Source: a virus
Lineage: Duplodnaviria; Heunggongvirae; Uroviricota; Caudoviricetes
Length of the DNA stretch: 39,530 nt
Direction: 5' to 3' (one strand)
Virus record (IMG/VR): IMGVR_UViG_2718218228_000004
In this document: positions 33,001 through 36,000 of the stretch, one piece after another
Numbering within the stretch: position 1 is the first letter of the stretch
Layout: every line of letters starts with the position of its first letter
Made by a program: the position numbers

Positions 33001-36000
33001 TCCGACTGCTGATTCAGTTGCAGCGTAACGGTAACTGGGTGACGGAAAAGGATGTCACCATTAACGGCAAGACCACCTCGCAGTTCCTGGCGTCGGTGAT
33101 TCTGGATAATCTGCCGCCCCGGCCCTTTAACATCCGGATGGTCAGGGAGACGGCGGACAGCACCACGGACCAGCTGCAGAACAGAACGCTCTGGTCGTCA
33201 TACACCGAAATCATCGATGTGAAACAGTGCTACCCGAACACGGCGATTGTGGGGCTGCAGGTGGATGCGGAGCAGTTTGGTGGCCAGCAGATGACGGTGA
33301 ACTACCATATCCGAGGTCGCATCATCCAGGTGCCGTCAAACTATGACCCGGAAAAACGCACGTACAGCGGCATCTGGGACGGCAGCCTGAAACCGGCATA
33401 CAGCAACAACCCGGCCTGGTGCCTGTGGGACATGCTGACTCACCCGCGCTACGGCATGGGAAAACGCCTGGGGGCGGCGGATGTGGACAAGTGGGCGCTG
33501 TATGCCATTGCGCAGTACTGCGACCAGATGGTCCCTGATGGTTTCGGGGGCACAGAGCCGCGGATGACCTTTAATGCGTACCTGTCACAACAGCGTAAGG
33601 CGTGGGACGTTCTCAGTGATTTCTGCTCGGCGATGCGCTGTATGCCGGTATGGAACGGCCAGACGCTGACGTTCGTTCAGGACAGTCCGTCGGATGTGGT
33701 GTGGCCGTACACCAACAGTGATGTGGTGGTGGATGATAACGGCGTGGGGTTTCGCTACAGCTTCAGCGCCCTGAAGGACCGCCACACGGCGGTGGAGGTG
33801 AATTACACCGACCCGCAGAACGGCTGGCAGACCTCCACGGAACTGGTGGAAGACCCGGAAGCCATACTGCGCTACGGGCGCAACCTGCTGAAGATGGATG
33901 CGTTCGGCTGTACCAGTCGCGGTCAGGCCCACCGTGCCGGGCTGTGGGTGATAAAGACCGGACTGCTGGAAACGCAGACGGTGGATTTCACGCTCGGGTC
34001 ACAGGGGCTGCGTCACACACCCGGTGACATTATTGAAATCTGTGATAACGACTATGCCGGGACCATGACCGGCGGACGTATCCTGTCCATCGATGCCGCC
34101 AGCCGCACCCTGACACTGGACCGTGAGGTGACCCTGCCGGAGACCGGTGCCGCCACGGTGAACCTGATTAACGGCAGCGGTAAGCCGGTGAGCGTGGCCA
34201 TCACTGCACACCCCGCGCCGGACCGGATACAGGTCAGCACCCTGCCGGATGGCGTGGAGACATACGGTGTGTGGGGGCTCTCCCTGCCGTCACTGCGTCG
34301 TCGCCTGTTCCGCTGTGTCTCCATCCGGGAAAACACGGACGGCACCTTTGCCATCACGGCAGTGCAGCACGTACCGGAAAAAGAAGCCATCGTGGATAAC
34401 GGGGCGCACTTTGACGGCGACCAGAGCGGCACCCTGAACAGCGTCATCCCTCCGGCAGTGCAGACCTGACGGTGGAGGTGAGTGCAGCTGACAGCCAGTA
34501 TCTGGCGCAGGCGAAATGGGACACGCCGCGGGTGGTGAAGGGCGTGCGCTTCAGTCTGCGCCTGACCAGTGGAAGCGGTCAGGACAGCCGTCTGGTGACC
34601 ACCGCCATCACTGCGGATACAGAGCATCGTTTCAGTGGTCTGCCGCTCGGGGAATACACCCTGACAGTCAGGGCAATTAACAGTTATGGCCAGCAGGGGG
34701 AACCGGCCATCACCACCTTCCGGATTAACGCGCCAGCAAAACCCGCCACCATTGAACTGACGCCGGGGTATTTTCAGATAACGGCGGTACCGGTGCTGGC
34801 GGTGTATGACCCGACGGTGCAGTTTGAGTTCTGGTTTTCGGAAAAACGCATCACGAACACGGCACAGGTGGAAAAATCTGCCCGTTATCTGGGGAGCGGC
34901 AGTCAGTGGACTGTCCAGGGAAGCCGGATTAAGCCGGGGACGGATTTCTGGTTTTACGTGCGCAGCGTCAACCTGGTGGGGAAATCTGCGTTTGTGGAAG
35001 TCAGCGGGCAGCCCAGCAATGATGGTGAAGGGTATCTGGAATTTTTCCGGGAAAAAATAGGAAAACTGCATCTGGCTCAGGGGCTATGGGAGCTGATAGA
35101 CAACAGCCAGCTTGCGGATGAGATGGCGGAGATGAAGACCACCATCACGGAAACCCGCAATGAAATCACACAGACGGTCAACAAAACGCTGGAGAACCAG
35201 AGCGCCACTATACAGCAGATACAGCGCGTGCAGAAGGACACAAATGATGACCTGGCTGCGCTGTACATGCTGAAGGTTCAAAAAACGAAAGACGGCATTC
35301 CCTATGTGGCCGGGATTGGTGCAGGGATTGAGGATACTGATGGCCAGCCACTGAGCAACATACTGCTGCTGGCTGACCGTATCGCGATGATAAATCCGGA
35401 GAGCGGCAACAGCACGCCGTTATTTGTGGCGCAGGGGAATCAGCTGTTCATGAACGACGTGTTCCTGAAGCGACTGTTTGCGGTGAGTATCACCTCGTCC
35501 GGCAATCCCCCGACGTTTTCCCTGACGCCGGACGGGCGACTGACGGCGAAAAATGCGGATATCAGTGGCAGTGTGAATGCGAACTCAGGGACGCTCAACA
35601 ACGTCACGATTAATGAGAACTGTCAGATTAAGGGGAAACTGTCAGCCAACCAGATTGAAGGCGATATTGTCAAAACGGTCAGCAAGTCTTTCCCCCGCAC
35701 GAGCACTTATGCCAGTGGCACCATCACGGTAAGAATCAGTGATGATCAGAAGTTTGACCGGCAGGTCATGATACCGCCAGTGTTATTCCGCGGTGGTAAG
35801 CATGAGAATTTCAACAGTAATAACCAACAGTCATACTGGTATTCAACCTGCCGGTTAAGAGTGACCCGCAATGGTCAGGAGATTTTTAATCAGTCCACGA
35901 CGGATGCTCAGGGCGTATTTTCCTCAGTTATAGATATGCCTGCCGGACAGGGGACGCTGACACTGACATTCACCGTATCTTCATCAGGAGCGAATAACTG

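Follow-up and report, generated by a model that had tools for sequence, protein, structure and literature searches.

The gene for the tip attachment protein, or host specificity protein J, in a lambdoid prophage of E. coli O157 strain 350 is a pseudogene as deposited. Its reading frame is interrupted, and one base, a C in codon 623, is absent from it. The prophage lies in the window, i.e., the whole stretch of 39,530 nucleotides that was analysed. The chances are about even that this is a genuine, very recent deletion of one C from gpJ that is private to the strain. That the gene is split is already known, as RefSeq/PGAP tags it 'gpJ, phage attachment tail tip protein J, frameshifted'. The gene, its lesion and its two open portions are located as follows.

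32598..36076, plus strand: gpJ pseudogene (tip attachment / host specificity protein J), 3479 nt, PGAP BFL21_RS13915 'frameshifted'
34463..34464, plus strand: deletion junction, one C absent (intact form GTGCAG-C-ACCTGACG), non-homopolymer
34467..34469, plus strand: premature TGA arising from the frame change, two codons past the deletion
32598..34469, plus strand: N-terminal fragment ORF of 623 aa, with the FNIII-A and Phage-tail_3 hub domains kept
34464..36076, plus strand: C-terminal J remnant in the -1 frame, with most of Ig_J, Ig_J_second, Phage_Tail_Tip and the C-terminal receptor-binding domain

Intact J alleles have 3480 nt, compared with 3479 nt in the window. In the DNA alignment intact alleles read GTGCAGCACCTGACG at the junction, where the window reads GTGCAG-ACCTGACG. 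The lost base is the C of the His codon CAC, codon 623, in CAG-CAC-CTG. The local context is CAG[C]ACC, so that the deletion falls at a G-C-A site and not in a homopolymer. In the frame of the GTG at 32598, positions 34452-34469 are CCT CCG GCA GTG CAG ACC TGA (PPAVQT and a stop). The -1 frame is open past this stop until the stop at 36076, while the third frame has many stops across J. The original prediction had stated that J homology continues without a gap across the stop at 34467-34469 with the frame off by one, and its coordinates, peptides and frame change are all correct. It had also given the lambda reading at this site as PPAVQHLTAEV, which is seen in the alignment to lambda J (PDB 8iyk), and had attributed the frame change to one missing base. 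The C of CAC is indeed absent from the window in every alignment made.

Alignment to intact J genes, named as a check when the lesion was noticed, gave exactly one gap, at 34463/34464. Sakai Sp11 ECs_2161 and the alleles of strain 7636 and ERL05-1306 (all intact, 3480 nt) each show this single gap column over the whole of J, and four further J alleles give the same gap. The seven alleles are intact or differently broken. A compensating second indel within J was considered as an explanation and is ruled out by the single gap column. Apart from the one base, the window J is 99.5-99.8% identical to known J copies, which excludes a chance resemblance to J. When the C is reinserted, a single ORF of 1159 aa is obtained.

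Sequence, domains and synteny all place the gene in the lambda gpJ family. The repaired product of 1159 aa was aligned to lambda gpJ (PDB 8iyk, NP_040600.1), and against chain J of 8iyk the match (E = 0) covers residues 1-835 and 858-1158 of the query, which is nearly the full length. Lambda J is shorter (1132 aa), and the C-terminal part is more diverged. The Pfam domain series is the same as in lambda gpJ: in the repaired protein FNIII-A_GpJ is found at 86-207, Phage-tail_3 at 330-498, Ig_J at 610-713, Ig_J_second at 715-817, Phage_Tail_Tip at 872-999 and Ig_GpJ_C (receptor-binding) at 1036-1159, all six matches exceeding the curated cut-offs. The gene order is also that of lambda, H-M-L-K-I-J-lom-stf (the lambda record gives I-J-lom), and the neighbours of J are these.

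27425..32357, plus strand: tail genes H (tape measure), M, L, K and I, in lambda order, ORFs all intact
36143..38391, plus strand: lom and two tail-fibre genes, downstream of J, intact

The window gene differs from lambda J in being split by the one-base deletion at codon 623, so that translation would terminate ahead of the Ig-like domains, fibre and receptor-binding domain. The 623-aa fragment reaches 13 residues into the first of the Ig-like domains. Exact-protein look-ups with the N-terminal fragment (623, 601 and 640 aa), the C-terminal fragment (534 and 532 aa) and the repaired 1159-aa protein returned no record. Nothing can be read from these empty look-ups: the allele is a mosaic that is unique, and assemblies of short reads break within J.

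Among complete E. coli genomes, positions 32400-36100 have a 100% megablast match to E. coli strain 350 (NZ_CP018243.1), a human O157 isolate from the UK. The window is the reverse complement of this record, window position x corresponding to record position 2558685 - x. At record position ~2524222 (window 34463), the form CAGCACCTG has the C present and the form CAGACCTG has it deleted; the k-mer pair GTGCAGACCTGACGG vs GTGCAGCACCTGACGG separates the deleted and intact forms of the junction. A 60-mer centred on the junction was searched against 5426 complete E. coli genomes. It was found in 785 records from 780 genomes, at 3030 places, and the match was exact in the strain 350 assembly only. 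In the other 784 of the 785 records the match was at most 98.4%, and among the matches listed the corresponding sequence has 61 bases, i.e., one extra base, the C. A 32-mer of the deleted form had 0 matches in the viral, metagenome and species-representative genome collections, the source itself excepted, while the intact 33-mer used as a control was found at 64 viral and 4 metagenome loci. The deletion is therefore private to the strain 350 assembly.

J is a multi-copy gene in strain 350, where it occurs in 9 places. Five SNPs at 33191-33314 of the window are absent from the J genes of other strains and identical to those of the Sp4-like copy that strain 350 also carries. Gene conversion among the J paralogues of strain 350 is the suggested cause, so that J copies would exchange segments there. 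The window J is a unique mosaic, and its best match outside the strain 350 genome is 99.8%. The Sp4-like J of strain 350 is at L008 4922-8394. The tape-measure protein WP_032106087.1 is identical in the Sp14-like (27425-30004) and Sp4-like (L008 1-1714) prophages of strain 350, implying that long tail-module stretches are identical within this genome.

Another frameshifted J is known from a prophage of the same type. The CP-933U J of EDL933 (L006 32276-35754) is likewise annotated 'frameshifted' and likewise has 3479 nt, and the two prophages share their type, chromosomal position and older lesions. The lesion in EDL933 is, however, the loss of a G (delta-G) at the equivalent of window 33707, which is ~756 nt upstream of the loss of C at 34463 in strain 350. 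A 60-mer across delta-G has a match of at least 99% in 246 records, so the EDL933-type delta-G is certainly real and inherited. The Sp14-type J of strain 350 is intact at the equivalent of 33707 and broken at 34463 instead. Inheritance of the present lesion from the known Sp14/CP-933U J frameshift is ruled out, since the EDL933 lesion is at another site. Strain 350 does carry the delta-G allele, but in its Sp4-like prophage (sodC, tccP2) at 1.27 Mb and not at the Sp14-like locus.

The element in the window is a defective lambdoid prophage of O157:H7 of the Sp14 (Sakai) / CP-933U (EDL933) type. It extends from tRNA-Ser (serU)/mtfA to tccP (EspFu)/espJ, with the same flanks in EDL933 and 180-PT54. 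Asadulghani et al. 2009 (PMC2669165) report defects of Sakai Sp14 in the head, the major and minor tail, and host specificity. In addition to a frameshifted integrase, the prophage of strain 350 carries the following lesions and insertions outside J.

25571..25834, plus strand: truncated major capsid gene, a 264-nt stump, PGAP 'incomplete; missing C-terminus'
10176-10604: TerB-family gene (terB) with an internal stop, the same in 180-PT54, intact in EDL933 and ECP19-598
13015-14228: IS1203 (IS629-type) upstream of the holin gene
16185-17487: second IS1203 in the lysis region, a 1.3-kb insertion (transposase CDS 16232-17445) absent from EDL933, ECP19-598 and 180-PT54
19926-21855: terL, frameshifted in a poly-G run at 20186-20195

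The capsid stump abuts the major tail gene, and the head-completion and tail-terminator genes are absent between them. The truncated capsid with head-tail loss, the frameshifted integrase and the IS1203 upstream of the holin gene are all common to EDL933, ECP19-598 and 180-PT54. Because the capsid is truncated and the head-tail genes are lost, the prophage is defective whatever the state of J, and virions are impossible. The description of the element as a decaying prophage is thus borne out by the capsid, head-tail, integrase, terL and terB lesions and the two IS1203 copies, several of which are common to other strains. Judged from its presence in 180-PT54 and the intact gene in EDL933 and ECP19-598, the internal stop of terB is a lineage marker and not an error. 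The terL run has G9 in EDL933 (intact), G10 in strain 350 and ECP19-598, and G11 in 180-PT54 (all three frameshifted). Either the tract is hypermutable, or long-read assemblies repeatedly miscount this homopolymer. At ~18324 there is an 8-bp indel in a TG-rich repeat (TGTTGTTT unit), at which strain 350 is the same as 180-PT54 and differs from EDL933 and ECP19-598. At the same locus in ECP19-598, lom is frameshifted and terL carries an IS1203. In the same prophage of 180-PT54, a sister PacBio assembly, the tape-measure gene is frameshifted (L012 29754-32332) and J is intact. This is another singleton-looking lesion of the tail module, for which a real mutation and an artefact are alike possible.

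If the deletion is genuine, it would shift translation to a frame that stops two codons on, giving a 623-aa N-terminal hub fragment. Such a product would have neither of the Ig-like domains, nor the central tail-fibre segment, nor the receptor-binding domain, and would be null for host adsorption. As the capsid and head-tail genes had been lost earlier, J would have been without purifying selection and the lesion would represent neutral decay. On this reading the base is inferred to be missing from the DNA of the cell, and not merely from the consensus, and the change to be selectively neutral. In its favour, the alignments show one gap in 3480 aligned positions. Residual Quiver errors cluster in homopolymers, and the junction is not one; typical indel errors of long-read assemblies fall in homopolymer runs, in contrast to the G-C-A site here. 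The assembly looks clean where it was compared: in ~64 kb set against close relatives no other private single-base indel was found. A neighbouring 24.9-kb backbone stretch is without any, having the same length in Z1834, with ~1 mismatch if the bit score is taken as the guide. Within the window, single-base indels occur otherwise only at T8 (10989) and G10 (20186-20195). The former was considered as a homopolymer error, as it is odd in comparison with three strains, and this was rejected because a haplotype of the same length is widespread, being found in many genomes; the latter is found in ECP19-598 also. The late genes at the Sp14 locus carry differing lesions in differing strains (J in EDL933, the tape measure in 180-PT54, lom and terL in ECP19-598). 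The 24.9-kb stretch includes fliF (flagellar MS-ring; L011 21319-22976), which is annotated as frameshifted in the strain 350 backbone. Z1834, 644-PT8, 180-PT54 and DEC4E agree with strain 350 in the length of this stretch, and most other O157 genomes listed have one base more, implying a lineage-shared one-base indel somewhere within it. Against a real mutation, the junction deletion occurs in one assembly only among the 780 genomes and 3030 copies, and that assembly is of the long-read-only kind, in which residual indel errors give rise to spurious 'frameshifted' genes. The strain 350 assembly was made from PacBio reads only, with PBcR self-correction, Celera assembly of the longest 20x corrected reads and Quiver, and without Illumina polishing; its authors went so far as to simulate Illumina reads from the assemblies (PMC5359411). 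The caveat of a sequencing error, raised together with the lesion, is therefore legitimate. With a probability somewhat short of even, the C is present in the DNA of strain 350 and was dropped by PBcR/Celera/Quiver, in which case the true J is the intact protein of 1159 aa. Along with the long-read-only data and a singleton that is absent from the three other collections as well, this reading draws on a J that is otherwise without decay, in which one base restores a clean ORF with six J domains. The J region is also multi-copy and recombining within the genome, and the placement of reads for polishing is hardest there, so that having J in 9 places can lower polishing quality. On the other hand, the sampled paralogues all carry the C, and paralogous reads that were mis-mapped to this locus would support it. 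Roughly estimated, a genome should hold residual Quiver errors and true private indels in numbers of similar order, and for this reason mutation and artefact have been graded as they are here.

Two further readings accept the split gene as biologically meaningful. Recoding in a tail gene is known from lambda G/GT, which uses the -1 frame, and -1 is also the frame required to restore J. A GTG lies 3 nt past the stop, and translational coupling is conceivable, so that the halves of J might be made separately, with a restart at GTG 34472 or GTG 34478 (the earliest candidate starts of the C-terminal remnant), as a two-piece tail tip or for another role. Either form of this reading is barely credible. 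A scan of the J frame for slippery heptamers (X XXY YYZ, 0 frame) found none within 1 kb upstream of the stop, the nearest being at 32975 and 33458. The RNA downstream folds no better than shuffled sequence (34455-34560, 106 nt: -41 kcal/mol vs a shuffled mean of -40.5; z = -0.17). The two-frame arrangement is not conserved among homologues in the 785 records or in the viral and metagenome collections, where other copies have the extra C and a single ORF. Programmed frameshifting is excluded by the missing heptamer, the ordinary fold and the unconserved split, and it is in these respects that the window J differs from lambda G/GT, which it resembles as a tail-module gene in two frames with the second at -1. 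As for a restart, neither GTG 34472 nor GTG 34478 has an adequately spaced Shine-Dalgarno sequence, and the break is inside Ig_J (610-713) and not at a domain boundary. A prophage without capsid and head-tail genes has, moreover, no use for a functional tail tip. It is also very improbable that loss of J at the Sp14/CP-933U locus is favoured by recurrent selection in O157 and is not due to neutral drift. Two J lesions are found at this locus: many strains have delta-G (at the equivalent of 33707), and strain 350 has delta-C (at 34463). Selection would act, for example, if full-length J made by a defective prophage poisoned the tails of inducible phages resident in the same cell or left a receptor-binding protein exposed. 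In a weaker variant, the 623-aa hub fragment would be made and have a function of its own.

Frameshifted late genes are well documented in the defective lambdoid prophages of O157:H7, and the present case adds nothing mechanistically new. On either reading, mutation or artefact, the finding is ordinary and of very small biological weight. A singleton one-base indel in a long-read-only assembly is not to be taken as evidence of prophage decay or lost host range before it is confirmed in reads. If the deletion is real, the J of this prophage leaves the pool of tail-tip alleles that are exchanged by recombination among O157 prophages.
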